Of a stretch of 34,418 nucleotides of DNA, positions 4,262 through 29,466 are shown one piece after another. Position 1 is the first letter of the stretch; every line of letters starts with the position of its first letter. Source of the stretch: a virus (Duplodnaviria; Caudoviricetes); the IMG/VR virus record IMGVR_UViG_3300017766_003471, positions 1 through 34,418 of that record. One strand, 5' to 3'. The notes under the pieces are model-generated. The model saw only the letters and a list, made by a program, of their open reading frames with translations. It searched no databases and was not told where the DNA came from. The translations under genes and the position numbers were made by a program.

Positions 4262-4881
4262 AACTAAGTTACGCAATTACAGTTTGTAATGAATTTATTG
4301 AAATACAAAAACTACTCGGATTTTTATTAAAAAATAAACGTGTCGAAGATGAAATTGTAGTTTTATTTGATGAAACTAATGGAGATCTAGAAGTAGAAAA
4401 TTTTTTACGATCATATTCTGCAAAAGTAGGATTTTCATGGCATAAAGAAAAATTTAAAGGACATTTTGCAGATTGGAAAAATCATTTAACAAAATTATGT
4501 ACAGGAGATTATATTTTTCAAATTGATGCAGATGAAATACCACATGAAAAATTAATAGAACTTCTCCCGGAAATTTTACAAGAAAATATTGAATGTGATG
4601 TAATTATGGTACCGCGAGTTAATACGGTAGATGGTTTAACTCAAGAACATATTCAAAAATGGGGATGGCGTGTAGATGAAAAAGGTTGGGTTAATTGGCC
4701 CGATGAGCAATGGAGAATATACAAAAACAATTCAGAAATTAAATGGATAAACAAAGTTCATGAGCGACTAGAAGGCTATAAAGTTTGGACTCATTTACCA
4801 ACAATTGAAGAGTTTGCATTATATCATGCAAAAACAATTAAACGTCAAGAAAAACAAAATACATATTACGAGACATTATGA
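4258..4881 (+). CDS. glycosyltransferase family 2 (GT-A)
   Basis: LSYAITVCNE; FADWKN; GDYIFQIDADE (DxD); WINKVHE. Confidence 0.9.
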   Translation: MKLSYAITVCNEFIEIQKLLGFLLKNKRVEDEIVVLFDETNGDLEVENFLRSYSAKVGFSWHKEKFKGHFADWKNHLTKLCTGDYIFQIDADEIPHEKLIELLPEILQENIECDVIMVPRVNTVDGLTQEHIQKWGWRVDEKGWVNWPDEQWRIYKNNSEIKWINKVHERLEGYKVWTHLPTIEEFALYHAKTIKRQEKQNTYYETL

Positions 4882-5735
4882 GAAAACGAGCTTTAGTTAC
4901 CGGTGGTGCTGGATTCATTGGAACTAATTTAATTAAATTATTACTTCAAAATAACTTCGATGTTATATCAATTGATAATTATTTTACGGGATTTGAAAGT
5001 AATCACATCGATGGAGCTATTTATATTAAACGAGACTTATTAAACATATCTGATTTTCACGAATATGGATCTTTTGATGTAATATTTCATTTAGCTGCAA
5101 TTGCTAGAATTCAACCATCATTTAGTTTACCAGTAGAATATTTTGAAAATAATGCAGTAGCTACTATGAAAATTGCAAAATTTTGTGTAGATACTAATAC
5201 TCCATTAATTTATGCTGGTTCTAGTTCACACCATTCCGGAAAATTTAAGAATCCATATACATTTAGCAAAGATATAGGTGAAGAAATAATCAATTTATTT
5301 CAACAACATTATAATTTAAATGCATCTATATCTAGATTTTATAATGTATATGGGCCACATCATCTTAAAGAAGGTGGATACTGTACCGTTATTGGAAAAT
5401 GGGAACGTGCTATAGAAACTAAACATCCTATAGTAATATATGGCTCTGGAACTAAACGTAGAGATTTTACGCACGTTAATGATATTGTTTCTGCATTACT
5501 ATTAATTTTTGAAAAAAATGCATGGGGGCATATTTTTGAACTAGGTACCGGTAAAAATTATTCTATACAAGAGATTGCAAATATGTTTGAATATGATTCA
5601 ATTGTATATGAAGATGATAAACCTGGTGAAGCAATTGATACACTTTGTGATTCTAGTTTAGCTAAAAATGTATTGAATTGGGAATGTAAATTTAATATTA
5701 AAGATTATATTTTAAACTATATAGGATCTATATGA
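4878..5735 (+). CDS. NAD-dependent nucleotide-sugar epimerase/dehydratase
   Basis: VTGGAGFIG, HLAA, YTFSK (YxxxK), RFYNVYGP, RDFTHV. Confidence 0.92.
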   Translation: MRKRALVTGGAGFIGTNLIKLLLQNNFDVISIDNYFTGFESNHIDGAIYIKRDLLNISDFHEYGSFDVIFHLAAIARIQPSFSLPVEYFENNAVATMKIAKFCVDTNTPLIYAGSSSHHSGKFKNPYTFSKDIGEEIINLFQQHYNLNASISRFYNVYGPHHLKEGGYCTVIGKWERAIETKHPIVIYGSGTKRRDFTHVNDIVSALLLIFEKNAWGHIFELGTGKNYSIQEIANMFEYDSIVYEDDKPGEAIDTLCDSSLAKNVLNWECKFNIKDYILNYIGSI

Positions 5736-6688
5736 ATGATAATTTAATTATATACATATCTTCGCGAAATAATTATGATATGCTTAAAGGCGAAGTATTT
5801 AAAAATATCGACACTGAAGGATTTGAATTAATTAATGTAGATGACAATTCTTCATTAGAAGAAGTCGAAAAAGGAAAACAATATTGTTCTGAGAATAACA
5901 TAGTTTTTTTAGAGAATAAAGATCGCGGGGTACAAATGGCAACGCAAACATTGATTGATTTTATTAAAGAAAATCGACCAAATTGTAAATGGATAATTTG
6001 TTTTCAACATGATATATACCCGATATCTAAAAATTTCTTTAAAACATTATCTAGATATATTTTAGAACAAAAATTAAATGAATTTGGTATTGTTGGATTT
6101 AATGTTTTAGATAATGGCGATTATACTAATGATTCTTTAGATAGATTTAATAATGGCGAAATGCCATTAGGGATGATTGGTATGGCACATTTATCAATTC
6201 GATCAAATTCTGGGAGATGGTTATGTCCTAATCAACAAGATGCATTAATTAATTCAGGCAATTGGAATCAGCCATTTATTTCAGAATTTCCAATGTGGGC
6301 AGCAGTTGGTATTAATGTATCATTATGGAATATGTATATTAAACCTACAAATGAATATCATTTTCATTTATGGTTACCAGATATTGCAATGCAGTTTAAT
6401 TATCTAAACTTTCCATGTTTAACATTGACAAATTTATATTGTTTAAATAATCAATTTTTAAAAGAAAAATATAATATTAATGTTAATTCCGCAACAGGTG
6501 CTAAATCTGGAAATGAGTATCATTTTGGTAAATATTCAAATTTCGATGCTTGGCGTTCTAGATGGGGATGGGACTATGAAAATACAAATACTTTTGAATC
6601 AATCAAACAAAATTACGATAATACATTAATCGGAAAATATTACAAACACGATATACAGATGGGCCCATTAAGAAAGTATAAATTATGA
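5732..6688 (+). CDS. GT-A fold glycosyltransferase (putative)
   Basis: IIYISSRN, INVDDNSS, ENKDRG, WIICFQHD; lies within the glycosylation cluster. Confidence 0.7.
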   Translation: MNDNLIIYISSRNNYDMLKGEVFKNIDTEGFELINVDDNSSLEEVEKGKQYCSENNIVFLENKDRGVQMATQTLIDFIKENRPNCKWIICFQHDIYPISKNFFKTLSRYILEQKLNEFGIVGFNVLDNGDYTNDSLDRFNNGEMPLGMIGMAHLSIRSNSGRWLCPNQQDALINSGNWNQPFISEFPMWAAVGINVSLWNMYIKPTNEYHFHLWLPDIAMQFNYLNFPCLTLTNLYCLNNQFLKEKYNINVNSATGAKSGNEYHFGKYSNFDAWRSRWGWDYENTNTFESIKQNYDNTLIGKYYKHDIQMGPLRKYKL

Positions 6689-7665
6689 AAATATTAGTAA
6701 CAGGTGCAGCTGGCTTAATTGCAAGTCATTTAGTAGATTTTTTATTAGAGCAAGGACATAGTGTAGTAGGCGTAGATGATATGTCATATGGAAACATTGA
6801 AAATTTAAAAAATGCTCATCGAAATAAAAATTTTCAATTTAAAAAAACAAAAGTACAATTTTTAAATCTTTGGAAAGAACATTTTGATGTTATTTATCAT
6901 TTAGCTTCGATGAAAAAACCAGCAAACGGTATTATAAAATCAGCCGATGTTCTAAAAGAAAATTATCAAATGATTGAAATGGTTGTATCGGAAGCAGTAA
7001 AAAATGGTTCATTTTTAATATTTACATCAACTTCTGATGTATATGGGAATTCTACAACATTTTTAGAATCTGAAGCAATTACTATTGGACCTCCTACTAA
7101 TGAACGATATTCATATGCATTATCTAAATTATATGGCGAACAATTTATTTTCAATGAAATTCAACAATCGAATTTAAAAGGATGCGTAGTTAGAGTATTT
7201 GGATGCGCATCTTGGAGATCTAATAAAAGTTGGTCTGGTGGTCATATTCCATTATTTGTAGACAAAGCTTTAAAAGGTGAATCTATACACATTCATGGGG
7301 ATGGGATGCAAACTAGATCAATTAGTCATGCATTAGATATCGCTCATGGATTAAGTAAATTAATACAACATAAGGATATAGTTACTGGACATATTATTAA
7401 TTTAGGTACTGATGAGCAAACTACGGTACGAGAAGTTGCTGAATATATCATATCTAAAACTAATTCAAAATCTGAATTAATTTTTGATGATCGAGAACAA
7501 ATATTTGGAAATTATAAAGAAATTATGAAAAGATTTGCAAATACGACTAAAGCAAAAGAATTAATTGATTTCAAAATAAATTATTTAACTTATCAAGTTA
7601 TAGATGAAATAATCAAGGTATATAGTGATGAAAATAGCGGTTATTACACCAATTCAACATATTGA
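6685..7665 (+). CDS. NAD-dependent epimerase/dehydratase (UDP-glucuronate decarboxylase-like)
   Basis: VTGAAGLIA, FTSTSDVYG, RYSYALSK, GDGMQTRS. Confidence 0.9.
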   Translation: MKILVTGAAGLIASHLVDFLLEQGHSVVGVDDMSYGNIENLKNAHRNKNFQFKKTKVQFLNLWKEHFDVIYHLASMKKPANGIIKSADVLKENYQMIEMVVSEAVKNGSFLIFTSTSDVYGNSTTFLESEAITIGPPTNERYSYALSKLYGEQFIFNEIQQSNLKGCVVRVFGCASWRSNKSWSGGHIPLFVDKALKGESIHIHGDGMQTRSISHALDIAHGLSKLIQHKDIVTGHIINLGTDEQTTVREVAEYIISKTNSKSELIFDDREQIFGNYKEIMKRFANTTKAKELIDFKINYLTYQVIDEIIKVYSDENSGYYTNSTY

Positions 7666-8572
7666 TGGTGTATTAGATATATTACATACAAAAGGAGATG
7701 TATTTTTAAATGAAACTGCATCTAAATTAGAAGTTAGAAAACTTTTATTAAAAGAAAAAATTGATACTATAATTTGTAATCCAAATCAACAGACATATAA
7801 AATTGATCGTGAATTATTAGATGGTACTAATGTAACATTAATTAATACATGCTCAACGGGCATAAATCATATTGATTATGAATATTGTATTGATAATGAT
7901 ATTAAAATATATTCTTTAACTAAAGATTATGAATTAATAAATCATTTGCCATCTACATCGGAATTAGCATTTGGATTGATGTTATCATTATTAAGAAAAA
8001 TTCCAGAATCTAAACAACATGTTTCTGAATATAAATGGGATTATACAAATTTTGTAGGCAGACAAGTTAAAGGACTAAATATTGGAATTATCGGATATGG
8101 TCGTTTAGGAAAAATGATGTTCGATTATTGTTCAGCATTCGGAGCTAATGTAAAAGTTTACGATCCATATAAAAAACAAAATTTTTCAGATTCATTTTTA
8201 TTAAATCATTATACAACATTAGAACAGTTATTTGAAACATCTGATGTAATTTCGCTACATGTACATGTTACTAATGAAACTAAATATTTAGTTGATCATA
8301 ATCTTCTTGGATTATGCAAAAATACTCCTTATATTATAAATACATCAAGAGGTGAAATTGTACGAGAACACGATATTGTTGAAGCGTTAGATAAAAATTT
8401 AATCGCCGGTTATGGAACTGATGTCATAGAAAATGAATTTGATGATTTAACTATGTCACCAATAATTAATGCAATGAATGATAAAAAAAATATAATAGTT
8501 ACTCCACATATCGGAGGAATGACGTTAGAGGGACAAAAAAAGGCATATATATGGGCAGTAAACAAACTTTAA
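7628..8572 (+). CDS. D-isomer-specific 2-hydroxyacid dehydrogenase (SerA-like)
   Basis: TGINHID, GIIGYGRLG, SLHV, INTSRG, GTDV..E, TPHIGG. Confidence 0.9.
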   Translation: MKIAVITPIQHIDGVLDILHTKGDVFLNETASKLEVRKLLLKEKIDTIICNPNQQTYKIDRELLDGTNVTLINTCSTGINHIDYEYCIDNDIKIYSLTKDYELINHLPSTSELAFGLMLSLLRKIPESKQHVSEYKWDYTNFVGRQVKGLNIGIIGYGRLGKMMFDYCSAFGANVKVYDPYKKQNFSDSFLLNHYTTLEQLFETSDVISLHVHVTNETKYLVDHNLLGLCKNTPYIINTSRGEIVREHDIVEALDKNLIAGYGTDVIENEFDDLTMSPIINAMNDKKNIIVTPHIGGMTLEGQKKAYIWAVNKL

Positions 8573-9114
8573 AGGTATTAGTAATAATACCGGCAAAATT
8601 GGATTCGACAAGACTTCAAAACAAAAATATTCAACAAATTAATGGAAGACCGATGATTGAATATTCAATTGAATATGCAAAAATAAGTAAGTATAATCCT
8701 ACAATTGTAGTTTCGTCAGAAAGTCCAGATGTATGGGATATTGCGTTAAAAAATAATGTATCATGGACAGCTCGTCCAGATCACCTTTTAAAGGATGCTG
8801 AAGTTACCGATGTATACATTGATTTTTGCAGTAAAATTGAAGATGGAAAGTATGATTTAGTTGTAGCATTACAGCCAGATAATCCAAATCGTTCACATAC
8901 ACTAGACGAATGTATTGATTATATGATTTCAAATAATTATGATGATTTAATTACTGTTAATCCTTCATATAAAAGAAGCGGATCAGTTAGAGTTTTTAAA
9001 TTTGAATATTTGAAAAATTCGATGGTTAGTAAAAGAATTGGTTGTATACGCGATGCTGCAATTGATATTCATTATTTAAATGATTTAAAACAAGTAGAAC
9101 AAAAAATAGGTTAA
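8551..9114 (+). CDS. neuA: CMP-nonulosonate synthetase / acylneuraminate cytidylyltransferase (NeuA-like)
   Basis: IIPAKLDSTRLQNKNI (PARxGSKxxxxKN-like), ARP..L, LQPDNPNR, AIDIH. Confidence 0.8.
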   Translation: MGSKQTLKVLVIIPAKLDSTRLQNKNIQQINGRPMIEYSIEYAKISKYNPTIVVSSESPDVWDIALKNNVSWTARPDHLLKDAEVTDVYIDFCSKIEDGKYDLVVALQPDNPNRSHTLDECIDYMISNNYDDLITVNPSYKRSGSVRVFKFEYLKNSMVSKRIGCIRDAAIDIHYLNDLKQVEQKIG

Positions 9115-9115
9115 T

Positions 9116-9703
9116 ATGGCAAAATTTGGAAAAGAACGATTTCCGTCTGATTATCAAAATGCAGTAGGAATGAACGCAAGTTCGACATTACATGAAAATT
9201 CGAAAGAATTAGTTAAACTTCTTAAACGATATAATATTTTAAATTCTGATTCAAAAATCTTTGAGTTAGGAGCTGGTCCCGCTAGAAATTTGTATTATAT
9301 CAATGAAGAATTTAAAACCAATAACATTTATTGTAGCGATCTGTTTGCAGAAGCTTCGAAGAATAATATGTCTGAGTCAATAAGGAATATAATTACATTC
9401 TATGAAGGAGACTCACAAGATATCATTGATAATAATATTATTAAAGATTTAGATTTGTTTTTAGTTTCAGATCATTTTATGCATTTACAATATGAAAAAG
9501 CTGATTATGTTATTAAAATGATTTTAAAAAATTGGAATCCTAAATATATAATGTTACGTGAACTAAAAAAAGAATTTGAAACACCAGAACACCCTAGATT
9601 ATTTCATAATTATGATCAGTTTTTACAAAAATATGATTTAATTTTAGAAACAACTAGTAAACAAACTGATGCTTATTTTATTTGGTTATTAAAAAGAAAA
9701 TAA
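9116..9703 (+). CDS. class I SAM-dependent methyltransferase
   Basis: IFELGAGPARNL (motif I), YCSD, HFMHL. Confidence 0.75.
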   Translation: MAKFGKERFPSDYQNAVGMNASSTLHENSKELVKLLKRYNILNSDSKIFELGAGPARNLYYINEEFKTNNIYCSDLFAEASKNNMSESIRNIITFYEGDSQDIIDNNIIKDLDLFLVSDHFMHLQYEKADYVIKMILKNWNPKYIMLRELKKEFETPEHPRLFHNYDQFLQKYDLILETTSKQTDAYFIWLLKRK

Positions 9704-9704
9704 T

Positions 9705-10502
9705 ATGAGAATAATAGCAGAAATTGGTTGGAATCATTGCGGTGATATGAATCTAGCAAAAGAAATGATTAAAGCAGCTGCAGATAGCGGAGCTGATTAT
9801 GCTAAATTTCAAACTTGGTCTGTTTCTAGATTAAAAACAGGCGATTGGGACGTCGACGGCCGCAGGGAGATTTATGAGCAAGCTGAATTAACAAAAGAAC
9901 GTCATGAAGAATTAATTTCATATTGTAAAGAAATGAATATTTCTTTTTTATCATCAGTTTTTAGTATCGAAGATGCCAAACTATTAGTAGAACTAAAATG
10001 TAATTCAGTTAAAATACCTAGTTTTGAATCTAGAAATATTGAATTAATTAAATATTGCAATAATCATTTTGAAACAGTATTTATGTCAACAGGTACGTCG
10101 ACATTAGAAGAAATTAAATACAGTATAAGTTTTTTTAATAAAGCAACATTGTATTTAATGCATTGCGTTTCAGTATATCCAGGAAAATATGAAATTGCAA
10201 ATCTTCCAAAAATGATTGCGTTAAAGCAAGTACATGATTTAGTTGGATATAGTGATCATATTGAAGGAATTGAATCTGCTAAAATTGCATTAGGATTAGG
10301 TGCAGTTGTTATTGAAAAACATTTTACAATCGATAATAATCTGCCAGGCAGAGATAATAAGTTTGCAATACTTCCAAATGAATTACTTGGATTACGTAAA
10401 TATATTAATTATATTCATGATATGATGATAGATCATGGAACTGGTTACAATGAATTAGAATTTGATTCTAGAACAAATTATGCAGGTAGATTTAATGGAT
10501 AA
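9705..10502 (+). CDS. neuB: N-acetylneuraminate/nonulosonate synthase (NeuB family), no obvious C-terminal SAF domain
   Basis: IIAEIGWNHCGD, GADYAKFQ, SVF, KIPS, STG, HCVSVYP, GYSDH, IEKHFT. Confidence 0.92.
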   Translation: MRIIAEIGWNHCGDMNLAKEMIKAAADSGADYAKFQTWSVSRLKTGDWDVDGRREIYEQAELTKERHEELISYCKEMNISFLSSVFSIEDAKLLVELKCNSVKIPSFESRNIELIKYCNNHFETVFMSTGTSTLEEIKYSISFFNKATLYLMHCVSVYPGKYEIANLPKMIALKQVHDLVGYSDHIEGIESAKIALGLGAVVIEKHFTIDNNLPGRDNKFAILPNELLGLRKYINYIHDMMIDHGTGYNELEFDSRTNYAGRFNG

Positions 10503-11136
10503 AATTTCAGTTATAATTAGAAATCGCAATGAATCTGAATATATAGGTTTTGCAATTCAATCAGTTATTGATCATTTTAAAGATCCAGAAATTATTATTA
10601 TGGATAATAATTCTAATGATGATTCTATAGAAATTGTAAATTTATTTTTGCTTAAAACGAATATACAAATATTCAATATTGATAATTATAGTCCCGGCAG
10701 ATCTATTAATGAAGCAGTAAAACGATGTAGTAATGATATTATTTTAATTTTATCTGCACATTCTCAGATTCATAAAATGGATTATGAATATGTTCAGTCT
10801 TGTTTAAAAAATCATATAGCAGTATTTGGAAAACAAACTCCTATATATAGAGGTAAAAAAATAACACCTAGATATATCTGGAGTCATTTTGGAGCTAATG
10901 AAGTTACTAATTTATTTTCAACTATTGAAGATAGATACTTTTTACACAATGCATTTTGTTTTTATACTAAAGAACATTTATTAAAGTATCCATTTGATGA
11001 AAAACTAATAGGTAAAGAAGATAGATATTGGGCTATTGATCAAGTTGAACTTGGATATTCATTTTTTTATACACCGAAAATAGAAATTAATCATTATTGG
11101 ACTAGTAATGGTGCAACTTGGAAAGGCTTAGCATGA
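10495..11136 (+). CDS. glycosyltransferase family 2
   Basis: ISVIIRNRNE, IIMDNNSND, SAH, FDE...EDRYWA; start reassigned to ATG 10495. Confidence 0.85.
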   Translation: MDKISVIIRNRNESEYIGFAIQSVIDHFKDPEIIIMDNNSNDDSIEIVNLFLLKTNIQIFNIDNYSPGRSINEAVKRCSNDIILILSAHSQIHKMDYEYVQSCLKNHIAVFGKQTPIYRGKKITPRYIWSHFGANEVTNLFSTIEDRYFLHNAFCFYTKEHLLKYPFDEKLIGKEDRYWAIDQVELGYSFFYTPKIEINHYWTSNGATWKGLA

Positions 11137-11846
11137 AATTAGCAGTTTATACAGCATTATTTACAGATTATCCAGATTATTTATATGGAGATCTTATACC
11201 ATATGTACACGACAAAGATGGAATAGATTATATTGCGTTTACTAATAGTGATTATTTAGAATCTGATTTTTGGGATGTACGTAAAATGAATATATGGAGA
11301 TCTGGGCGGTGGACTGCTAGAAAATGTAAAACATCTCCAGAAGAATTATTACCTGAATATGATGCATGGTTATGGATGGATAACGAAATTTATTTTACAT
11401 ATGACCCGCATGATTTATTTTCATTACATTTAACTGATTTTGATTTAGCAGTTCATCTTCATTGTGATCGAACGTGCTTATATCAAGAAGTAAATGAAAC
11501 TATCAATAGAAACCCATTGCGCGATCCTAAGGAGATGATTATTAATCAAGGTTTAGATTATCAACAACGAGGATATCCGGAAAATAATGGTTTATATGAA
11601 AATGGTATATTGTATCGAAGAAATAACGAATTAATTCGAAATTTTAATAAAACATGGTTTGATGAGACGTCAAAATGGAATACGGAAGATCAAATTTCAA
11701 TGATGTATTCATTATGGAAACATCCAGACGTTAAAGTTAATGGATTAAAACAAACATTTGTTTCACACAATTATAGAAATACATATTTGCCATTAACAGA
11801 TCAATTTAAATGTTTACCTAGATCCAATCGATATGTCAAAAAGTAA
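11133..11846 (+). CDS. DUF616 / TOD1-MUCI70-like glycosyltransferase
   Basis: VYTA, YIAFTN, ARKCK..P, WLWMD, H..R.CLYQE, GLYENGILYR, DQIS; ATGA overlap at 11133. Confidence 0.8.
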   Translation: MKLAVYTALFTDYPDYLYGDLIPYVHDKDGIDYIAFTNSDYLESDFWDVRKMNIWRSGRWTARKCKTSPEELLPEYDAWLWMDNEIYFTYDPHDLFSLHLTDFDLAVHLHCDRTCLYQEVNETINRNPLRDPKEMIINQGLDYQQRGYPENNGLYENGILYRRNNELIRNFNKTWFDETSKWNTEDQISMMYSLWKHPDVKVNGLKQTFVSHNYRNTYLPLTDQFKCLPRSNRYVKK

Positions 11847-12849
11847 AATATTATTATTATTTACAAATCATAGAGTTGCTGAAAAGCTATGGCCTATAAT
11901 ACCATTATTATCAATTGAATATGAAATTGATTTATTTTGCGTTGGGTTATTTAGTTTAAATACACCATGGGTTGGTGATATTGATGAGCGTCTCGTTGCA
12001 ATTAATAAATACAATCAATATCTTAATAATGTAATACAAGGGCCTGGAATTAAATTCCATGGAGATAGTATTCACGAATCATTGTTAAATTTTATTGACA
12101 TAAATTCATATAAATTTGTAATTTATGATGATAACCGAGAAATGCAAGAATTTAATATTCCGCATTTTTATAATGAATGTAAGTATAGAAATATCAAAGT
12201 AATTGGCAATGTCCACGGAAATGAAGATATCACAAAAGATGCATCAGGCATTAGTTATGATTTTAAAATGGAATTTCATAATGGCGGCATTCCTGCAAAT
12301 GATACATTAGCTAATGTAGTAGTTCAACCCCAACATATATTAGTTATAACTAATTTCCTAGGTAACCGCGGATCTATATTTCCTATTAATTTTGATCAAC
12401 GATTTGTACACGAATCCGGAATATTAGAATTATCTAAACAATTTAACTTACCGATAAAAATAAAAATAAAAACAAGACTAGATAAACCAGATTATCTTAA
12501 TGATATTTCATATGTAAATAGTTTATTAGAATGTGAAGTTATAACTAATTCAGAAAATATCGATGAATTAATAGCAAATTCTGCAGTAGTTATATCAGCT
12601 CCGTCTACATTATCATTTAAATCAATTCAACTAGGAATTCCTACGGTATTAATTAAAGGTTGTGGTCAAATCGGTAAATTCGAGTATTACCCAGGTCTTG
12701 TTGATTTAAACAAACAACAAATATTTGATTCTATTCAATATCAAATCGATCATGGTAAATTTAATGAATACATACAAACAACGATATCCGGAGGTGATGT
12801 ATTTCAGTCATCTCAAAATTATGTTAACTATATAAAAACAATATTATGA
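11833..12849 (+). CDS. GT-B fold transferase (sialyltransferase / CDP-glycerol transferase-like, putative)
   Basis: VHG motif; C-terminal DELIANSAVVISAPSTLSFKSIQLGIPTV. Confidence 0.55.
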   Translation: MSKSKILLLFTNHRVAEKLWPIIPLLSIEYEIDLFCVGLFSLNTPWVGDIDERLVAINKYNQYLNNVIQGPGIKFHGDSIHESLLNFIDINSYKFVIYDDNREMQEFNIPHFYNECKYRNIKVIGNVHGNEDITKDASGISYDFKMEFHNGGIPANDTLANVVVQPQHILVITNFLGNRGSIFPINFDQRFVHESGILELSKQFNLPIKIKIKTRLDKPDYLNDISYVNSLLECEVITNSENIDELIANSAVVISAPSTLSFKSIQLGIPTVLIKGCGQIGKFEYYPGLVDLNKQQIFDSIQYQIDHGKFNEYIQTTISGGDVFQSSQNYVNYIKTIL

Positions 12850-13541
12850 AAATAATCTATAGAATATCAGATGCTGGTTATAATAAAGTTAAACCAGATT
12901 ACATTAACAACGAAACTTGTCTTAAAAACTTTTGCAATGTATTTTTTGACTATATACATGATATACTAATCATTGCAGATAATTGCAGTGTTTCTACGAT
13001 TGATATGATTAATAAATACATCGATCCGATTAATATCATTAAAGTATCAGTTGGCCATGGCGCCGGAACATTTAATTTAGCATTAGATAATGCATTAACA
13101 TATGATGATGATGAAATTGTTTATTTTGTAGAAAATGATTATTTACATAAACCATATGCTGATAGAATTATACAAGAAGGATTTGATTTAGGTGCATCAT
13201 TTGTATCGTTATATGATCATCCAGACAAATATTTAGATCCTAGTCTAGGCGGAAATCCATATTGCGAAGGCGGTGCTGAAGATACAAGAGTCTATCTATC
13301 TAAATCATCTCATTGGAAAATTACCAATTCAACTACCATGACATTTGCTAGCAAAGTATCAACACTTAAACGAGTTGAATCAACGTTACGAAAACATACC
13401 GTAGGAACACATCCTAATGATTTTCCTATGTTTTTAGAACTTCGAGAACAAAATGAATTGTTAATAACATCTATTCCTGGATATTCAACCCATGGAGAAA
13501 CAGCTTGGTTAGCGCCATTAACAGATTGGAGTAAAATATGA
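12846..13541 (+). CDS. GT-A fold glycosyltransferase (phage type)
   Basis: IIADN, GAGTF, VYFVENDYLH, SLYDHPDKY, STTMTFA, IPGYSTH. Confidence 0.7.
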   Translation: MKIIYRISDAGYNKVKPDYINNETCLKNFCNVFFDYIHDILIIADNCSVSTIDMINKYIDPINIIKVSVGHGAGTFNLALDNALTYDDDEIVYFVENDYLHKPYADRIIQEGFDLGASFVSLYDHPDKYLDPSLGGNPYCEGGAEDTRVYLSKSSHWKITNSTTMTFASKVSTLKRVESTLRKHTVGTHPNDFPMFLELREQNELLITSIPGYSTHGETAWLAPLTDWSKI

Positions 13542-14296
13542 TATCAGTAATAATACCAACTTATAAAAGTCCCGCAACGTTAGATTTATGTTTACGTTCT
13601 GCAATTACAGGACAACAAAATAAAAATCAAATAATAGTTGTTGTCGATGGCTTCTATGACTTGAATAAAGATGTCTTAGAAACATGGAAAGATTCAATTG
13701 ATATCTTGAACTTAGAATCTAATTTAGGTCTTTCCCGCGCCACGAATTTAGGAGTATACAATGCTAAACATGATAAGATACTAATAGTCAATGATGATAA
13801 TGTATTTCCTAGATTCTGGGATACAACGTTGGAAGATGATTGGGAAGATGGTGCTGTTATAACACCTAATCAAGTTGAACCACATCCTTCGATATTCAAA
13901 CAATTCATTATAGAAGATTTAGGAACAACACCAGAAACATTTGATTTAGAAAAATTTTGGTTGTTTGATTATCATTATGCATCTGGCGATAAAAAAGACG
14001 AATCTGGTTCGACACTACCTATATTCATGAATAAGTATGATTATTTACGAATAGGTGGTTGGGATGAAAATTATGAAATGGGTATGGTAGCAGATTGGGA
14101 TTTCTTTTTAAAATGTTCTATTTCGGGTTTAAAAATGATTAGGACATGGAATTGCCATTTTTATCATTTTGCATCCGTTTCGACAAATGGCGAACGTCGA
14201 CAACAAGCAGAACAAAATGGACATGAATATGCCCGATATAAATGGAATAGTTATATTTATTCACATCCTGAGACGAATTGTAAGTTTATAGTTTAA
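13538..14296 (+). CDS. glycosyltransferase family 2
   Basis: ISVIIPT, VVVDG, NLGL..ATNLG, VNDD, GGWDE, DWDF. Confidence 0.92.
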   Translation: MISVIIPTYKSPATLDLCLRSAITGQQNKNQIIVVVDGFYDLNKDVLETWKDSIDILNLESNLGLSRATNLGVYNAKHDKILIVNDDNVFPRFWDTTLEDDWEDGAVITPNQVEPHPSIFKQFIIEDLGTTPETFDLEKFWLFDYHYASGDKKDESGSTLPIFMNKYDYLRIGGWDENYEMGMVADWDFFLKCSISGLKMIRTWNCHFYHFASVSTNGERRQQAEQNGHEYARYKWNSYIYSHPETNCKFIV

Positions 14297-14386: not shown

Positions 14387-14647
14387 ATGACAAACAAAAA
14401 AAACTTTATTAAAAGTATGTTATCTGACGAATCAGGTAATGTTTCATCAAAGAGATTCATAGGAATAGTAGCTGGATTATCTTTATGTATAACAATGTAT
14501 GTTAATAGTTATTCACATGGAGATATTAAACCATCTGATACGTTAGTTAACGCAGTTTCAATGTTATCATTTGGATGTTTAGGATTAGCTTCCGTTGACA
14601 AAATTTTTGGTAAAAAATCAAATAACGATAAAACAGAAAACTTGTAA
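14387..14647 (+). CDS. small two-TM membrane protein, holin-like
   Basis: 86 aa; SSKRFIG then two hydrophobic segments and a charged tail; directly upstream of the GH19 gene. Confidence 0.6.
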   Translation: MTNKKNFIKSMLSDESGNVSSKRFIGIVAGLSLCITMYVNSYSHGDIKPSDTLVNAVSMLSFGCLGLASVDKIFGKKSNNDKTENL

Positions 14648-14648
14648 A

Positions 14649-15260
14649 ATGAGTTTAAAGAGTTTACAAGAAAAGATCGGAGTAACTGCAGATGGTGCTT
14701 TTGGTCCAGGAACAATAAAAGCAGCCATGGCTTTCTATAAACTAACTCCAGTTCGTGCTACACATTTCTTTGCACAAACAGCTCATGAAACGGGAGAATA
14801 CAAATTATTTAGTGAGAATCTAAATTACTCTGCAAAAGGTTTGCAAGGTACATTTGGTAAGTATTTTCCAGGTACGTTAGAAGAATCTTATGCTCGTAAT
14901 CCAGAAAAGATTGCTAATCGAGTATATGCTGATCGAATGGGCAATGGTAATGAAGCTTCAGGAGATGGATGGAAGTATCGTGGAAGAGGCGCTCTTCAGT
15001 TGACTGGTAAAGCTAATTACGAAGCATTTGCTAAATATTTAGGTAAACCAGAAGTAATGACTAATCCGGATTTAGTTGCAACTACTTATGCATTTGAATC
15101 TGCAATGTACTTCTTTGAAAAGAATAAGCTTTGGGCTATTTGCGATAAAGGAGTTGATGCAGCTACAATCACAGCATTGACTAAAAGAATCAACGGCGGG
15201 ACAAATGGATTGGATCATAGAATAGCATTAACATCTAAATACTATAATTATGTAAAATAA
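14649..15260 (+). CDS. glycoside hydrolase family 19 endolysin with N-terminal peptidoglycan-binding motif
   Basis: LQEKIGVTADGAFGPGT; FFAQTAHET; ENLNYS; YRGRGALQLTGKANY; TKRINGGTNGL; start reassigned to ATG 14649. Confidence 0.92.
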   Translation: MSLKSLQEKIGVTADGAFGPGTIKAAMAFYKLTPVRATHFFAQTAHETGEYKLFSENLNYSAKGLQGTFGKYFPGTLEESYARNPEKIANRVYADRMGNGNEASGDGWKYRGRGALQLTGKANYEAFAKYLGKPEVMTNPDLVATTYAFESAMYFFEKNKLWAICDKGVDAATITALTKRINGGTNGLDHRIALTSKYYNYVK

Positions 15261-16369
15261 TGAAAAATCTATCAAAAGAAGAATTACTTAGTAGATTAGA
15301 GGCAATTAATAGAAGTAATGCTATTATTTACTTTGATCTTAGTGGAGTTATATTAGGAGTTAATGACATCTTCTTGGAAGCAATGGGCTATGGTAAAGGT
15401 AACCATAACGATATAATTGGTAAAAAGCATAGCATTTTTGTATGTGAAGATTATGCAAGGTCACTCGAATACGAAAAGTTTTGGGACATCTTAAGGAGCG
15501 GTAAATACTATGCTGGTGAGTTCGAAAGAAGAAGAAAAGATGGAAGTCTTATCAATCTTCAAGCAACTTATAATCCTATCTTTGATGAAGATAATAAGAT
15601 TACCAAGATAATGAAGATTGCTACTGACGTTAGTGCAATTGTTAATAGTAAGAAACAAATAGATGCAATTAACAGAAGCACTGCTTTGATTAGTTTTAAC
15701 ATTGATGGGTTTATAACAGATGTGAATTCTATATTCTTAGAAACCATGGGTTATAAATTCAATGAAAAAGACAAAGTCGTTGGTAAACATCATAGTGTTT
15801 TTGTAAGTTATGAGTATTCTAAATCTGATGAGTATGTTAAGTTTTGGGAAAGCTTAAGAAAAGGTAAGTACTTTGATGGGATCTTTGAAAGAAGAAAAGT
15901 AGATGGTTCTGTTGTTTATTTACAAGCATCTTACAATCCTGTATTTGACAGCAAAGGAAATATTACTGATGTAGTAAAAATTGCTACTGATGTTACTGAG
16001 TCTGTAGTCAATAAAGAAAAAATAGATAAGCTTACAAAGAGTTTGCAAGTGGAATTAGAAAACTCTGAAAAACTTAAAAATGCAGTAGAGATAGAAAAGA
16101 ATGCAGCTTTGAATGATTTGGATATAGTAATGAAAAAGAGTCAGGGTGAGTTGATAAAGATTATTGTTAAGGTTGCTTTGGCTGTTATAGTTGGAGTAGG
16201 AGTCGTAACAACGGTACTATTCTGGGCGGCGATTATAACAAATCAAGATACTCAAATTATTGGTTCAACATGGAGTAACATGTTTAGTGTATTATTAACA
16301 AATGCCTTTTCAATAGTTGGTACAATCATGGGTATCAAGTATGCTACTCAAGAAGGCAGTAAAAAATAA
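15260..16369 (+). CDS. tandem PAS-PAS sensor + coiled coil + two C-terminal TM helices
   Basis: Two 121-aa repeats (AINRS..F...G.I..VN..FL..MGY...G.HH..F...FW..L..G....G.F.R..DG....A.YNP..D.....KIATDV), a heptad-like region at aa ~250-295 and two hydrophobic segments at aa ~305-326 and ~341-359. Confidence 0.88.
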   Translation: MKNLSKEELLSRLEAINRSNAIIYFDLSGVILGVNDIFLEAMGYGKGNHNDIIGKKHSIFVCEDYARSLEYEKFWDILRSGKYYAGEFERRRKDGSLINLQATYNPIFDEDNKITKIMKIATDVSAIVNSKKQIDAINRSTALISFNIDGFITDVNSIFLETMGYKFNEKDKVVGKHHSVFVSYEYSKSDEYVKFWESLRKGKYFDGIFERRKVDGSVVYLQASYNPVFDSKGNITDVVKIATDVTESVVNKEKIDKLTKSLQVELENSEKLKNAVEIEKNAALNDLDIVMKKSQGELIKIIVKVALAVIVGVGVVTTVLFWAAIITNQDTQIIGSTWSNMFSVLLTNAFSIVGTIMGIKYATQEGSKK

Positions 16370-16376
16370 AATAATT

Positions 16377-16384
16377 ATATTTAT
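16377..16384 (+). promoter_or_regulatory. ATATTTAT promoter motif
   Basis: Recurrent intergenic motif. Confidence 0.5.
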
Positions 16385-16403
16385 TAAATATAAGGAATCA
16401 TAT

Positions 16404-16871
16404 ATGAAACTAAGCGAACATTTATCATTAGCAGAAGTAACACGTAGTGAAACTGCAAAAAGAAAAGGTATCTCAAATTTACCAACAGATGCTCATATTG
16501 CAAATTTCAAACTATTAGCAGAAAAGATTTTTGAACCAATTAGAAATAATTTTGGTAAACCTATTCACATATCTTCAGGGTATAGATCTGTAGCTTTGAA
16601 TAAAGCTGTTGGCGGCTCATTGTCTTCACAACATTGCTCGGGCGAAGCAATTGATATTGATATGGATGGCCACGCCGGCGGAATTACCAACAAAATGGTG
16701 TTTGATTATATCAAAGACAACTTAGAGTTTGATCAATTGATTTGGGAATTTGGTACAGACAACAATCCTGATTGGGTTCACGTTTCATATGAATCAACAG
16801 GCAAACAACGCAAACAAATTTTAAAGGCAGTTAAAAAAGCCGGTGGAACATCTTACGTAGCTTATAAATAA
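16404..16871 (+). CDS. peptidase M15 (Zn D-Ala-D-Ala carboxypeptidase-like) endolysin
   Basis: SSGYRS..LN.AVGG..SQH..GEAIDI; FDQLIWE; WVHVSY; start reassigned to ATG 16404. Confidence 0.9.
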   Translation: MKLSEHLSLAEVTRSETAKRKGISNLPTDAHIANFKLLAEKIFEPIRNNFGKPIHISSGYRSVALNKAVGGSLSSQHCSGEAIDIDMDGHAGGITNKMVFDYIKDNLEFDQLIWEFGTDNNPDWVHVSYESTGKQRKQILKAVKKAGGTSYVAYK

Positions 16872-16890
16872 ATTTAAAATTACGACAATC

Positions 16891-17307
16891 ATGAAAACAT
16901 TTCTATTAGTAAGTAGTACAACAACTTTATCATTTATTTGTACGTATTTTTTAAATTTAACAATGCACAATGCAGATCAATATTTGGCTCTAGTTGCAGT
17001 AGTAATGTTAGATGGATTTTTCGGAGTAATTGCCGGAATAAAACGAGAAGGATTTCAAACACGTAAAGCTCTAAAAGTTTTACAAACATTGGTAGTGTGG
17101 ATTATTTTCTTATCAACGTTGCTAATAGTAGAACAAGGATATCCGGGAACAACATGGTTAAGTGAAACAATTTTATTTCCATTCTTATTCTTCCAAATCA
17201 TTAGTGCATTAAAAAATGCATCTATGGCAGGATTTATTGAAGCACAATTATTAACAAGCATATTAGATAAAATAGATCTTCATAAAGGAGATCGTAAAAA
17301 GGATTAA
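16891..17307 (+). CDS. phage holin (Phage_holin_4_1-like)
   Basis: Three to four TM segments; LDGFFGVIAG and QIISALKNA resemble the DxxTG and ExxSIxEN motifs; lies between two endolysins. Confidence 0.7.
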   Translation: MKTFLLVSSTTTLSFICTYFLNLTMHNADQYLALVAVVMLDGFFGVIAGIKREGFQTRKALKVLQTLVVWIIFLSTLLIVEQGYPGTTWLSETILFPFLFFQIISALKNASMAGFIEAQLLTSILDKIDLHKGDRKKD

Positions 17308-17309
17308 CA

Positions 17310-17987
17310 ATGAGTTTAGATGTTACAAAAATCAAACAAGTTCCTTTGAAAGAAACACAGTATTTCAAAGAAGAAATCAAAAAAACACAAATCGTATTGC
17401 ATCACACAGCTGGCAATTCATCTGGTGTAGGCACAATTAAAATGTGGGATACGGATGATAGAGGACGTATTGCAACTTGCGTAACTATATCAGGTAAAGG
17501 TGCATCAAAAGATACATATGATGGAGAAATTTGTCAAGCATTTTCATCAAAGTATTGGGCATATCATTTAGGTATTAAAGGAGATGTATTTCGTGCAAAT
17601 GGTCTTCCTGTTAAAAGCTTAGATAAAACATCAATTGGTATTGAAATTTGTAGTTGGGGGCCATTAGAGAAAAAAGGTGACAAGTTTTATAACTATGTTG
17701 ATAGGGAAGTCCCCGCAGATCAAGTTACTGAATTAGAAACTCCATATAAAGGATATAAGTATTATCATCGATACACTGATGCACAAATTGAATCAGTAAA
17801 GAATCTTTTATTGTATTGGCGCGATACATACGGAATTAATTTGACATACAATGAAACGGATATGTGGTCAGTTTCTAAACGTGCACTTAGCGGCGATAAT
17901 GGTGTATACACTCATAATTCATATCGTAAAGATAAAACAGATATTCATCCATGCCCTAGAATGATTGCAATGTTAAAATCTTTGTAA
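17310..17987 (+). CDS. N-acetylmuramoyl-L-alanine amidase (Amidase_2)
   Basis: IVLHHTAG, WAYHLG, SIGIEI, TDAQI, THNSYRKDKTD. Confidence 0.9.
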   Translation: MSLDVTKIKQVPLKETQYFKEEIKKTQIVLHHTAGNSSGVGTIKMWDTDDRGRIATCVTISGKGASKDTYDGEICQAFSSKYWAYHLGIKGDVFRANGLPVKSLDKTSIGIEICSWGPLEKKGDKFYNYVDREVPADQVTELETPYKGYKYYHRYTDAQIESVKNLLLYWRDTYGINLTYNETDMWSVSKRALSGDNGVYTHNSYRKDKTDIHPCPRMIAMLKSL

Positions 17988-18015: not shown

Positions 18016-19065
18016 ATGCTAAACGAATACGAAACACAGAAAACTCTTAATCCAAAACTTTGGGACGGCGACCGGCTTAAGCCAGGCCTGCGTAAAAAGT
18101 TTCTTAAGATTGCAAAAGAATTTTACGCATTCTTAGAAATTGATGCAGAAGTTAAAGATATCATACTAATTGGCAGCAATGCTAATTACAATTGGACAGA
18201 ACATTCTGATATTGATCTTCACGTTGTTATTAATTATATGCAAGTAGGAGAAAACATTCATCTCGTTAAAAACTATTTAATGGCAAAGAAATCCGTTTGG
18301 AATACAAATTATCCACTTTCATTGCAAGGAACTCCAATTGAATTGTATGCACAAGATTCGAATGAAGAATTGCATTCATCAGTAGGGGAATATTCTTTAC
18401 TTAATAATAAATGGATTCGTAAACCTAGTGCTGATACGATATCGATTGATGATAATATTATTGATCAAAAAGTAAAACCATTAGCATATGAAATTGAACA
18501 ACTTGATGCAAATGATCCTAAACTAAAAAAACGAATTAATGCGTTAATGCGTCGTATACGTTCTATGCGACAGGCAGGATTAGATGCCGAAGGAGAATAT
18601 TCAGTAGAGAATCTAGCATATAAAAAACTTCGCAATGACGGTCATTTAGACAAGTTAAAAAATTTATTACGTAAAGTAACAGTAGCATATTTGCAAACAG
18701 AATCCGTTATATATGAAGATGCAATCACATCATTAGCAAAACATGTTAATGGCGAAAAAATGTTAGACGAATCTGGGTGGATGCGCATAATGAAATTTAC
18801 CGGTGCGGTAGAAGATGCAATGGGACAATGGAAACACCCGGGACGTTGCACAATGATACCTAGCAGCAACATAACAATGCGCAATGTGTCACACGCAGTA
18901 ATAGGCATCGATGACACGGGGCATATGAAAATGATGCGCCCAGGCGTTGAAACATATACATACCCAGGCGGTCGAGTATTTGAAATACCCGTAACGCCTC
19001 AACAACGAACAATGATAATGCAATTGCGTAATGCAATACAAAATGGAGCTCGCTATGCAAAGTAG
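18016..19065 (+). CDS. Pol-beta superfamily nucleotidyltransferase with an extra C-terminal domain
   Basis: GSNANYNW...SDIDLH (GS-x-DxD), IELY.QD, GEYSVENLAYKKLR. Confidence 0.82.
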   Translation: MLNEYETQKTLNPKLWDGDRLKPGLRKKFLKIAKEFYAFLEIDAEVKDIILIGSNANYNWTEHSDIDLHVVINYMQVGENIHLVKNYLMAKKSVWNTNYPLSLQGTPIELYAQDSNEELHSSVGEYSLLNNKWIRKPSADTISIDDNIIDQKVKPLAYEIEQLDANDPKLKKRINALMRRIRSMRQAGLDAEGEYSVENLAYKKLRNDGHLDKLKNLLRKVTVAYLQTESVIYEDAITSLAKHVNGEKMLDESGWMRIMKFTGAVEDAMGQWKHPGRCTMIPSSNITMRNVSHAVIGIDDTGHMKMMRPGVETYTYPGGRVFEIPVTPQQRTMIMQLRNAIQNGARYAK

Positions 19066-19844: not shown

Positions 19845-20018
19845 ATGAAACTTACACAAGAACAAGTACTTGGAATCATACGACACACTTTGACTTTCGT
19901 TGGAGGTATTGTTATTGCTCGAGGTTTAGCTGACGAAACTGTGGTTACTGAAATCATTGGTGGCGTTGTAACACTTACTGGTGCTATCTGGTCTATCGTA
20001 GATAAAAACAAGGCTTAA
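19845..20018 (+). CDS. 57-aa two-TM putative holin (Pam3-gp28-like); absent from the ORF track
   Basis: Manual translation MKLTQEQVLGIIRHTLTFVGGIVIARGLADETVVTEIIGGVVTLTGAIWSIVDKNKA; fills the gap and follows the promoter motif. Confidence 0.8.
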   Translation: MKLTQEQVLGIIRHTLTFVGGIVIARGLADETVVTEIIGGVVTLTGAIWSIVDKNKA

Positions 20019-20492: not shown

Positions 20493-20894
20493 ATGTTCGA
20501 ACAGATACTACATAGTATCAATCATTATGGTAAAACCAAGTTAGCTCCGTCGCTCATATGTGACGGAGTTGGTGTTTTCGCAATTACAGAAATTGTCGCA
20601 GGTTTCGTTTTATTTCAAGATGTTGAACCAGATTCAATTCATATTCCTTTTGATCAAATTGATAATGAAACCACACGCGCATATTTAAACTCTACATGTA
20701 ATTCAGATAAATTTGGAATTTGGCTTTCTAGAACATATAATAATATTAATATGGCATACTATATCAACCATTCAGAAACGCCTAATGTATTTCATGATTT
20801 AACGTTAGATAAATACATTGCACTTCGAGATATTTGTGCTGGAGAAGAATTAACATGTTTATATACTAACGAGGAAATAGATTGGCTTACTTAA
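20493..20894 (+). CDS. SET-domain lysine methyltransferase
   Basis: GVGVFA..I..G, YINHSETPNV, ALRDI.AGEELTCLY; start reassigned to ATG 20493. Confidence 0.85.
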   Translation: MFEQILHSINHYGKTKLAPSLICDGVGVFAITEIVAGFVLFQDVEPDSIHIPFDQIDNETTRAYLNSTCNSDKFGIWLSRTYNNINMAYYINHSETPNVFHDLTLDKYIALRDICAGEELTCLYTNEEIDWLT

Positions 20895-21520
20895 ACGCAA
20901 ACATACCAACCATTACATGTTTTATACGTAATGAATTTTTATTTAATTTTGAACGAGGACAAAATGAATATACTGCTGCAGATGTACATTCCGTAGCATC
21001 GATACAAAAAAGAACGCCATTATTTGAAGCATTTCTAGAAAATGGAGTAAATTGGACACGAAGACCAATTCATGCATTTTGTTGGAAGAAGAATGCTGAA
21101 ACGTTGCCATTAACGGAACATGTATATTGGGATTGTTTTTCTTCTTACATTGATGTTCAAGTACGAGAACGATTATCGGGGTTACGTGCAGATCTGATTA
21201 GCATTACGGGTGTCAAGCGCCAAGGGGTGTATATGTTTACATTAGATTGGAGTCATGAAAATCGCAATGTATTAGACACTAATTTTTCTGAAACTCCAGA
21301 ACATAAATGCGGACATGTATTCAAAATGGATAACGGAAACTATTTTATATATCCTAACAATAGAATCATATGGATGGATAATGCTTGGACATTTAATAGA
21401 ATAGATAAGAATCCCGGATATAAGATTGATATGACTGTTTATTCCGTTGAGGGAAAAGCTGGTTATGAAACAGACTATTCATATATGACGGAGTTTAAAC
21501 AAGATAAAACAAACAAGTAA
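20882..21520 (+). CDS. hypothetical phage protein (MAYLNANIP type)
   Basis: TTG start; PIHAF, WDCFS, YMFTLDW, EHKCGH, YPNNR. Confidence 0.7.
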   Translation: MAYLNANIPTITCFIRNEFLFNFERGQNEYTAADVHSVASIQKRTPLFEAFLENGVNWTRRPIHAFCWKKNAETLPLTEHVYWDCFSSYIDVQVRERLSGLRADLISITGVKRQGVYMFTLDWSHENRNVLDTNFSETPEHKCGHVFKMDNGNYFIYPNNRIIWMDNAWTFNRIDKNPGYKIDMTVYSVEGKAGYETDYSYMTEFKQDKTNK

Positions 21521-21531: not shown

Positions 21532-21864
21532 ATGAAACTAATAAATTTACTTTTTGAATCAAAAGATAAACCTGACACTTTCGAATCATTTGCAGATACT
21601 AGAGAAGCGGGAGCCGAGAAGATTGCGAATACCGCACATAAAAAAGGTGGATTAGCACTTTTAACGTGGCATCATTTCAAAGTTAAATTGCCTTACTATA
21701 AAAAAGCAGCAGCAGGACGGTTTGACTTAGACAAAGCAAAAAAGGAATTTGAAGAAACATATAAAAAGATATCTACTTCAATGTCACAAACCGAATTTCA
21801 ACGAGAAGTAGGTCGATTAGAAGTATTAGGTGAATTAATAATTAGAGAGGAACGAGGACGATGA
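21532..21864 (+). CDS. hypothetical protein with MKLINLLFE leader
   Basis: 110 aa ORF, ATGA-coupled to the next gene. Confidence 0.7.
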   Translation: MKLINLLFESKDKPDTFESFADTREAGAEKIANTAHKKGGLALLTWHHFKVKLPYYKKAAAGRFDLDKAKKEFEETYKKISTSMSQTEFQREVGRLEVLGELIIREERGR

Positions 21865-22556
21865 TACGCCTTACATCTTTATTAAACGAAGGCAATGGTC
21901 CATTAACTGGTAAATGGTTAGATACTGGAGTCGGTTTAGCTAAATTATTAATTGCTCGTGGATTTTCAAAAGAAGCTGCAAGTGCCATTGTTGGAAATAT
22001 GTGGGCAGAATCCACATTCAATCCTGCAGCATCAAATGCAATTGGAGCATTTGGTTTATTGCAATGGTTAGGTGATCGTAAAAAAGAATTAATCAAATTT
22101 GCAAACAGCCGTAAAATGAATCCAAACTCACTTAAAACTCAATTGGATTTTATCAAGTATGAATTGCTAGATGCATATGATGGTGAGTATGCATATGAAG
22201 CAAATCAATTTAAAAAAGCCATGGCGTCTGATACCGTAACAGGAAAGGCTTATGCATTTGCTAAGTTTGTTGAACGTCCTAATAGTTCAGAATTAACTGC
22301 ATCAGCTAGTTCAAGAAAAATTGCAGCAAAAAATGTATATGATGTTTTAACTGGAATAAAACCTAAAAAAACTGCAGCTACAACACTTGGAAAAGCTTCT
22401 ACAAAAAAATCATCTAAAAAACAATATACAGTTAAACAAGGTGAAACGTTAGGTGGCATTGCAAATCGCAATAAAACAACGATAGATGCAATTCTTAAAA
22501 AGAATAAAGGACTTAAAGCTAATAAGATTGCAGTAGGGCAAAAACTATATATTTAA
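21861..22556 (+). CDS. phage tail lysozyme (Phage_lysozyme2-like) + LysM
   Basis: AASAIVGNMWAES.FNP, GAFGLLQW..R, QLDFI..EL, FVERP; C-terminal YTVKQGETLGGIA...N....I.VGQKL. Confidence 0.88.
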   Translation: MIRLTSLLNEGNGPLTGKWLDTGVGLAKLLIARGFSKEAASAIVGNMWAESTFNPAASNAIGAFGLLQWLGDRKKELIKFANSRKMNPNSLKTQLDFIKYELLDAYDGEYAYEANQFKKAMASDTVTGKAYAFAKFVERPNSSELTASASSRKIAAKNVYDVLTGIKPKKTAATTLGKASTKKSSKKQYTVKQGETLGGIANRNKTTIDAILKKNKGLKANKIAVGQKLYI

Positions 22557-22590: not shown

Positions 22591-22803
22591 ATGATCTTAG
22601 AAAATTATATTAACCAGTTATTCGTTGATTCAATCAATATCATGAAAACCGAAGAATGGGAATGGCCTGAGTCATGGAACATTTCAAGGAAAATCAAGTT
22701 TCTAGATGAATCATTACAATATGCAGAAAAACGAGAATTTTATGAGCAATGCGCAATCATTAGAGATGTCAAAAAAAGCATCAACGAAGACCAAACAACC
22801 TAA
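22591..22803 (+). CDS. small UVR (UvrB/UvrC) motif protein
   Basis: LQYAEKREFYEQCAIIRD resembles the A-xx-E-x-[FY]-E-x-A-A-xx-RD pattern. Confidence 0.6.
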   Translation: MILENYINQLFVDSINIMKTEEWEWPESWNISRKIKFLDESLQYAEKREFYEQCAIIRDVKKSINEDQTT

Positions 22804-23062
22804 AACAAATCGCGGACTTTATGAAGTTATAATTCATAATGACTCTGTTAATACATTTGATCATGTAATTGATTGTTTGATTGATATTTGTGGACATAAT
22901 AACCTACAAGCTCAACAATGTGCATTAATTACGCATACGCGCGGCAGCTGTTCGGTATTTGTTGATGGATTTGAAATGTGCACGGAAATAAGCAAACTAT
23001 TAACACAACAACGTATTAAAACATCAGTAAACAAATTTAATAGCCGTTATGAAATTGATTAA
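22766..23062 (+). CDS. clpS: ATP-dependent Clp protease adaptor ClpS
   Basis: VIIHNDSVNTFDHVIDCL...A.QCALITH.RG.C.V; start reassigned to ATG 22766. Confidence 0.85.
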   Translation: MSKKASTKTKQPKTNRGLYEVIIHNDSVNTFDHVIDCLIDICGHNNLQAQQCALITHTRGSCSVFVDGFEMCTEISKLLTQQRIKTSVNKFNSRYEID

Positions 23063-29392: not shown

Positions 29393-29393
29393 G

Positions 29394-29455: not shown

Positions 29456-29466
29456 ATGCAATCTGG

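Follow-up and report, generated by a model that had tools for sequence, protein, structure and literature searches.

A tandem-PAS protein with a strongly constrained membrane hairpin in the lysis cassette of a large freshwater phage: a candidate for sensor-gated lysis

The timing of lysis is the chief life-history decision of a lytic phage, and the lysis controls studied to date read superinfection or the accumulation of holin. Holins are triggered by depolarisation of the membrane, and pinholins pair with signal-arrest-release (SAR) endolysins. Among the closest described systems, phage T4 senses superinfection in the periplasm through its antiholins RI and RIII, with RI bound to holin T (PMC8385771, PMC11413866). 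In the jumbo phage phiKZ, an extra gene of the lysis cassette shifts holin timing; its product is soluble and is suggested to bind the holin, and the abstract names no sensor domain (PMC12894885). In pinholin S21 of phage 21, a glycine zipper in the second transmembrane domain (TMD2) serves pinhole formation (PMC9025707). The present analysis concerns a 369-aa protein (P0001) with two PAS domains, a coiled coil and a membrane hairpin, which is encoded within a lysis cassette of a 34,418-nucleotide stretch of DNA (positions 1 to 34,418 of IMG/VR record IMGVR_UViG_3300017766_003471; the window). The record is linear and about 20% complete according to CheckV. The cassette comes from a large uncultured freshwater phage, and the four public runs that hold at least half of the window's words are all freshwater or lake metagenomes. 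The family of this protein is real, widespread, strongly constrained and linked to lysis genes, and it is without a described counterpart. No description of a PAS- or kinase-controlled phage lysis gene was found in the mostly open-access literature, where gene tables of huge phages may use automatic names, and the main text of PMC9723584 contains none of the terms 'histidine kinase', 'PAS' and 'two-component'.

The cassette consists of six genes, all on the + strand, in the order 2-TM gene (two transmembrane, TM, segments), GH19 endolysin, PAS-hairpin gene, M15 endolysin, holin and amidase (Table 1). This order and these families had been given in an initial annotation made from the letters alone, and Pfam and PHROG matches bear them out, as the stop-start overlap TAATG does for the proposed coupling of the PAS gene to the GH19 gene. 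The annotation had further described a PAS pair followed by a coil and two hydrophobic helices, with no kinase, GGDEF/EAL or methyl-accepting chemotaxis protein (MCP) output. Pfam recognises two PAS_3 stretches and none of these outputs at E<=0.01, including MCPsignal; the protein ends 123 aa past PAS2, and its output domain is none known to Pfam, PHROGs or NCBIfam. In an AlphaFold model (mean predicted local distance difference test, pLDDT, 73; predicted template modelling score, pTM, 0.36), two PAS folds are followed by a continuous helix (246-326) that includes TM1; a loop of five residues then leads to a second helix (332-367). Because of the pTM of 0.36 only the local structure of this model is trusted, the arrangement of domains being unreliable. 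Hydropathy peaks at 2.63 (298-316) and at 1.76 (341-359). Basic residues flank the hairpin on both its N- and C-sides and none lies in the loop, so that charges and hydropathy suggest a two-TM topology with both termini inside (N-in/C-in).

The PAS gene has relatives in 253 viral loci, and about 1000 stretches are estimated to carry the TM2 motif. The best 80 of the 253 loci, at 83-99% identity, were kept for analysis; loci with short flanks were dropped from the counts below (20/80 for the fused form, 33/80 for the three-gene form, 18/80 for the control and 37/80 for the 2.5-kb holin count). By tblastn, a lysin of a named family lies within 1.5 kb of the gene in 46/60 loci, and in 58/60 when an unnamed peptidoglycan (PG)-binding family is included, versus 0/62 and 3/62 for a control accessory gene of the window (20882-21520). 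Where at least 1.5 kb is present on both flanks, a lysin is found within two genes in 57/60 loci (45/60 counting named families only). Lysin density around the gene falls from 6.3 per 10 kb at 0-1 kb to 1.0 at 1-2 kb and to 0 both at 2-4 kb and at 4-8 kb in the 80 loci, so the link with lysis genes that the annotation had proposed for a neighbourhood survey is upheld. Across at least seven multi-locus backbone groups, GH19, GH24, M15 and PG-binding-family genes replace one another as the neighbouring lysin, and the gene is tightly packed, with a gap of at most 30 nt to the upstream open reading frame (ORF) in 51/81 cases and of at most 40 nt to the downstream ORF in 56/81. The PG-binding family (L002:768-1562; PG-binding domain plus phrog_3000) is common, replaces the endolysin in many cassettes and is probably an undescribed lysin. 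ClpS was considered as a second control gene and was not used, as it occurred in one locus only.

The gene is an optional part of the cassette. Among 80 loci found via the window's holin, 21 have the hairpin (12/37 of those with 2.5-kb flanks). Four close relatives (L086-L089), whose holin and amidase are 94% and 96% identical to those of the window, have only the 2-TM gene, the holin and the amidase, and the PAS-hairpin gene is therefore accessory to lysis rather than core. The small 2-TM protein upstream of GH19, which has no family match in Pfam, PHROG or NCBIfam, is a putative holin; members of its family lie no more than 1.2 kb from the PAS gene in 36/60 full-flank loci and also occur in cassettes without a PAS gene. 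The hairpin might itself be the holin, of class II topology, releasing the endolysin at a time set by the sensor. The inferred N-in/C-in layout would suit this, as does the two-gene unit that the PAS-hairpin gene forms with GH19 in L036, L064, L072, L073 and L076. However, the window already holds a Pfam holin and the 2-TM candidate, close relatives dispense with the hairpin, some of the two-gene units have small hydrophobic ORFs nearby, and no holin profile matches the hairpin, which together make this explanation quite improbable.

The strongest constraint falls on TM2 (aa 332-364). After removal of 17 duplicates among 81 coding sequences (CDS), all 33 columns are invariant in the 64 unique CDS, while 30 of the 33 codons vary; the proportion of synonymous differences (pS) is 0.574, and the ratio of non-synonymous to synonymous differences (pN/pS) is 0.012, versus 0.11-0.25 in other regions. 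An antisense or DNA-level cause was rejected because of the codon variation. Over 47 more distant sequences of the family, 94-100% have a small or polar residue at each of the positions 336, 340, 343, 347, 351, 354 and 358; these positions share one helix face, and those from 343 to 358 make a small-residue zipper (343-347-351-354-358) of the kind found in TMD2 of S21-type pinholins. The holins within 2.5 kb differ from locus to locus (2-TM family in 34/43, holin_4 in 17/43 and neither in 7/43), and a TM2 that stays unchanged whichever holin is near is easier to reconcile with self-assembly than with a single fixed partner from the phage. The partner of the conserved face is thus more likely another copy of the hairpin, or a host protein that is itself conserved, than one particular holin of the phage. 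Nevertheless, the hairpin might bind the 2-TM or holin_4 protein as a sensor-controlled antiholin and restrain lysis until the PAS signal arrives, in the manner of T4 RI/RIII except that the input would be redox sensed in the cytoplasm. The frequency of the 2-TM family near the gene, its place beside two of the three GAF fusions described below, the optional presence expected of a regulator and the position of the three-gene unit directly 3' of holin_4 in L130-type loci speak for such a partnership. It is nevertheless unlikely, since TM2 is invariant though the 2-TM proteins beside it vary (subtypes share about 40% identity), and since no more than 4/47 loci of the three-gene unit have a 2-TM family member at most two genes away.

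The annotation had left room for the C-terminal module to belong to a known non-lysis family, and Pfam, PHROGs, NCBIfam and PADLOC returned none; PADLOC gave only weak matches to the coil, outside the hairpin (E 0.014 and 0.027). DUF7442 weakly matches a few members of the family and not the protein of the window. No hairpin match was obtained among 50,697 GenBank phage records, and the ESM Atlas returned nothing usable for aa 250-369. With a model of the PAS-less form, a fold search of BFVD returned a single genuine match, to an uncharacterised protein from an uncultured phage, and the VIA wide fold search returned generic helical hairpins only; the best structural Z, 8.7 to a designed helical bundle, is within the range of common arrangements. 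A scan of genome contigs found the hairpin gene in four contigs of metagenome-assembled genomes (MAGs). In two of them (L081, L083) the PAS-hairpin gene lies amid many small proteins with one terminal membrane anchor; both look like binned viral contigs of a different type, and so they were not taken as host evidence. Among 400 genomes sampled from the phylum of a Flavobacteriales MAG, the hairpin was found only in the seed genome, with two weak hits to the coil only.

The same hairpin occurs under other sensors. A profile search gave 113 cluster representatives, several of which look chimeric; many consist of a small N-domain, a coil and the hairpin without PAS. When this PAS-less form was read in 80 viral loci, it proved to be the fixed third gene of a phage unit with a histidine kinase and a lone receiver: in loci with enough flank, the receiver lies upstream in 68/68, as does the kinase in 65/65. 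The phospho-Asp motif is present in 72/72 receivers and the H-box in all 73 longer kinases. The coils of the PAS-less form are 52, 59, 66, 87 or 94 residues long, differing in multiples of seven, as expected when the register carries a signal. Some units (L183, L184, L193, L205, L206, L224) have two histidine kinases, and the gene between the two encodes 200-220 aa with an N-terminal hydrophobic segment. In three contigs (L260-L262), a GAF domain is fused to the hairpin beside a 2-TM gene and/or GH19. In L031 (3520-4140), L077, L078 and L179 (6683-7294), a protein with a TM segment and a GAF-like domain (GAF E 0.0014) adjoins the hairpin gene or unit, a layout that may resemble that of T4 holin T. 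A single-PAS fusion of another PAS type (P0256) was not confirmed in its contig, and the only longer form found (P0355) looks like a joined ORF; neither was used. Near-duplicates were dropped before trees were built. In the hairpin tree, the root of which was not tested, the fused form makes up a single clade (100/100), which is nested with three-gene forms in a starred group (99/94). The fused protein can best be seen as short-circuiting the kinase-receiver relay, being a one-piece form of the three-gene unit.

These variants also bear on whether the hairpin acts in lysis at all. It might be a late modulator of the host membrane that travels with the lysins as a fellow late gene and serves, for example, to exclude superinfecting phages, to control the membrane potential or to bind a conserved membrane protein of the host. 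The invariance of TM2 also fits a conserved host target, the three-gene form often stands head-to-head with GH19 or away from lysins, and two loci of the fused form (L029, L068) are without near lysins. Against this, the lysin density around the fused form is zero beyond 2 kb and that around the three-gene form drops with distance from 2.8 to 0 per 10 kb, the control accessory gene has no such link, and the hairpin is without a PADLOC match. A role outside lysis therefore has only a small chance, and a lysis-related role of some kind is fairly probable.

PAS1 and PAS2, identical at 61/116 residues, group in a single clade (98/99) of a 68-row PAS tree, and the pair therefore stems from an internal duplication. 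This clade lies outside the starred clade of 25 bacterial domains and is sister, with weak support (82/57), to the PAS domains of phage histidine kinases. If this weak grouping holds, the nearest relatives of the pair would be the PAS domains of phage kinases that drive the same hairpin, not those of chemoreceptors. The kinship with BdlA/AerC-type chemoreceptor PAS domains, suggested for BdlA in the initial annotation, is itself supported: the PAS pair is 43-45% identical to plasmid PAS-MCP and PAS-GGDEF/EAL proteins. JGI labels many homologues 'methyl-accepting chemotaxis protein'. These two observations would suit a membrane-anchored decoy of a host chemoreceptor PAS that disturbs host signalling, the hairpin being a mere anchor. 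Such a decoy is highly improbable, because the MCP domain is missing, TM2 is under stronger constraint than the PAS domains, and the hairpin also turns up in PAS-less proteins, under the control of a kinase relay, and joined to GAF.

The annotation had also proposed sensing through heme or flavin, and the residues point to the latter. The best solved matches of the PAS domains in the PDB are MmoS, Aer and NifL. His57/His178 and Trp75/Trp196, the latter being the F-alpha Trp of flavin adenine dinucleotide (FAD)-type PAS domains, are present in 64/64 CDS and align to Aer H53 and W70, the numbering having been matched by hand to PMC9668731. Trp is the main FAD determinant of the FAD-binding PAS domains in clusters 4, 9 and 14, a conserved His is a mark of cluster 9 (AerC) and of cluster 14, and a conserved Asn is one of clusters 4 and 14 and is not listed for cluster 9 (PMC10468136). 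FAD has been predicted for both PAS domains of BdlA (PMC8694187). Since His and Trp without Asn are the pattern of cluster 9, flavin is a better guess than heme, O2 or NO, and the PAS domains may bind FAD and sense redox; heme and NO are not favoured by the residues.

From these observations, a mechanism can be proposed in which the cytoplasmic PAS pair would sense the cellular redox state by means of flavin and the in-register coiled coil would pass its change to the hairpin. Hairpins would then self-associate via the small/polar face of TM2 and give a small ion leak, and the resulting depolarisation would trigger the holin of the cassette, whichever type that is. The phage might thereby leave a failing host early, the direction of the effect being itself presumed, like FAD binding, topology, oligomer and leak. 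Taken as a whole, the proposal that the hairpin is gated by redox, assembles with itself and, by depolarising the membrane, triggers the resident holin is tentative and has somewhat less than an even chance. Like described holin families, the hairpin is a small TM module encoded beside an endolysin. Several points weigh against the proposal. The third FAD-binding residue, Asn85 of Aer, is Arg90/Arg211 in 64/64 CDS. No holin family matches the hairpin in Pfam (44 hairpin sequences), PHROGs or NCBIfam, and a profile comparison with 18 neighbouring membrane families gave no match (best probability 2.4%). The invariance of TM2 may be inflated, as the 80 loci are the best of 253 and one of the six search patterns lies within TM2. 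Many loci are near-copies, so that the linkage counts are not independent samples; the control family seems to come from one backbone, and its own count reaches 12/62 if a tail lysozyme is included among the queries. In L029 and L068, both with full flanks, no lysin is recognised up to two genes away. For the three-gene unit the tie to lysins is looser: counting both strands, 29/47 loci have one at a distance of at most two genes, only 17/47 have it on the same strand, and in several loci (e.g. L186, L195, L206, L215) none is recognised within 6 kb.

Table 1. Lysis cassette of the window and parts of the PAS-hairpin protein
Feature	Position	Strand	Remarks
Small 2-TM protein, 86 aa, unnamed family	14387..14647	+	two hydrophobic segments
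GH19 endolysin with short N-terminal PG-binding segment	14649..15260	+	PF00182 E 4e-8; PHROG endolysin E 2e-64
PAS-PAS-coiled coil-membrane hairpin protein, 369 aa, P0001	15260..16369	+	PAS_3, E 1.4e-24
PAS1, aa ~12-125	15293..15634	+	His57 and Trp75 invariant
PAS2, aa ~133-246	15656..15997	+	His178 and Trp196 invariant
Coiled-coil linker, aa 247-297	15998..16150	+	predicted to be continuous with TM1
TM1, aa 298-326	16151..16237	+	hydrophobic, more variable
TM2, aa 332-364	16253..16351	+	invariant, amphipathic, small/polar stripe 336-340-343-347-351-354-358
Peptidase M15 endolysin	16404..16871	+	PF08291 E 1.5e-19
Phage_holin_4_1 family holin	16891..17307	+	PF05105 E 8e-6, above cut-off
Amidase_2 endolysin	17310..17987	+	PF01510 E 3e-11

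Around the cassette, about 15 consecutive glycan-synthesis genes (1521-14296; glycosyltransferases, epimerases, a cytidylyltransferase, NeuB and a methyltransferase) lie immediately 5' of the lysis genes. On the 3' side, a Pol-beta-like nucleotidyltransferase gene (18016-19065; phrog_36119) follows, as it does the lysis cassette of many related loci, and 2-4 kb away there are a second holin (19845-20018; Pam3 gp28 family, E 1e-17) and a phage-lysozyme-2/LysM protein (21861-22556). The window further encodes a ClpS adaptor, a MoxR-like ATPase with a vWA-like partner and GroEL (22706-23062 and 28213-33254). The sequence ATATTTAT has 10 copies in the window, all on the + strand, and nine of them (1491, 14323, 16377, 18003, 19821, 21520, 24185, 26988 and 31607) lie within about 125 bases 5' of a start codon; by count it is not over-represented (10 observed versus 10.6). 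It is possibly a late promoter, which would divide the cassette into 2TM-GH19-PAS and M15-holin-amidase. The RNA run X20 gave only three short contigs, one of them over 15994-16145, and no evidence of expression.

If the proposed mechanism is true, lysis would be controlled in a new way, by a metabolic sensor of the phage coupled directly to a membrane effector, in hundreds of environmental phages, and oxygen and redox gradients of lakes would be linked to viral lysis. More broadly, large freshwater phages may possess a signalling toolkit of their own, made up of one-component PAS or GAF fusions and a full kinase-receiver relay, that acts through a new family of gated membrane hairpins and sets the time of the burst by respiratory redox; this wider view is possible and is held with reserve. 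As sensor and output are encoded by a single gene, the 369-aa protein lends itself to tests in laboratory strains and could become a ligand-gated lysis part.

The protein shares its conserved PAS His and Trp with AerC, Aer, BdlA/McpS, MmoS and NifL (PMC10468136, PMC8694187, PMC9668731), and the tandem arrangement with BdlA/McpS. It differs from these FAD-PAS sensors in that it has no MCP, kinase or cyclase output, has Arg for Asn, and falls outside the sampled bacterial clade. Pinholin S21 (PMC9025707) likewise has two TM helices with a small-residue zipper in the second, and yet no homology to it is detectable, and in the window a long coil and sensors are attached. The three endolysins of the window (GH19, M15 and amidase) have no hydrophobic segment of at least 1.3, that is, no hydrophobic anchor, and do not provide the SAR endolysin with which a pinholin is paired. 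The phiKZ cassette (PMC12894885) likewise holds an extra gene that shifts holin timing; the regulator there is soluble, whereas that of the window is a sensor-bearing membrane protein. The hairpin protein has no family match to T4 T or RI. As in T4 (PMC8385771, PMC11413866), lysis timing would be tied to a sensed condition via membrane-bound lysis proteins; T4 reads the periplasm through RI, whereas in the window a putatively cytoplasmic PAS pair is fused directly to its membrane output.

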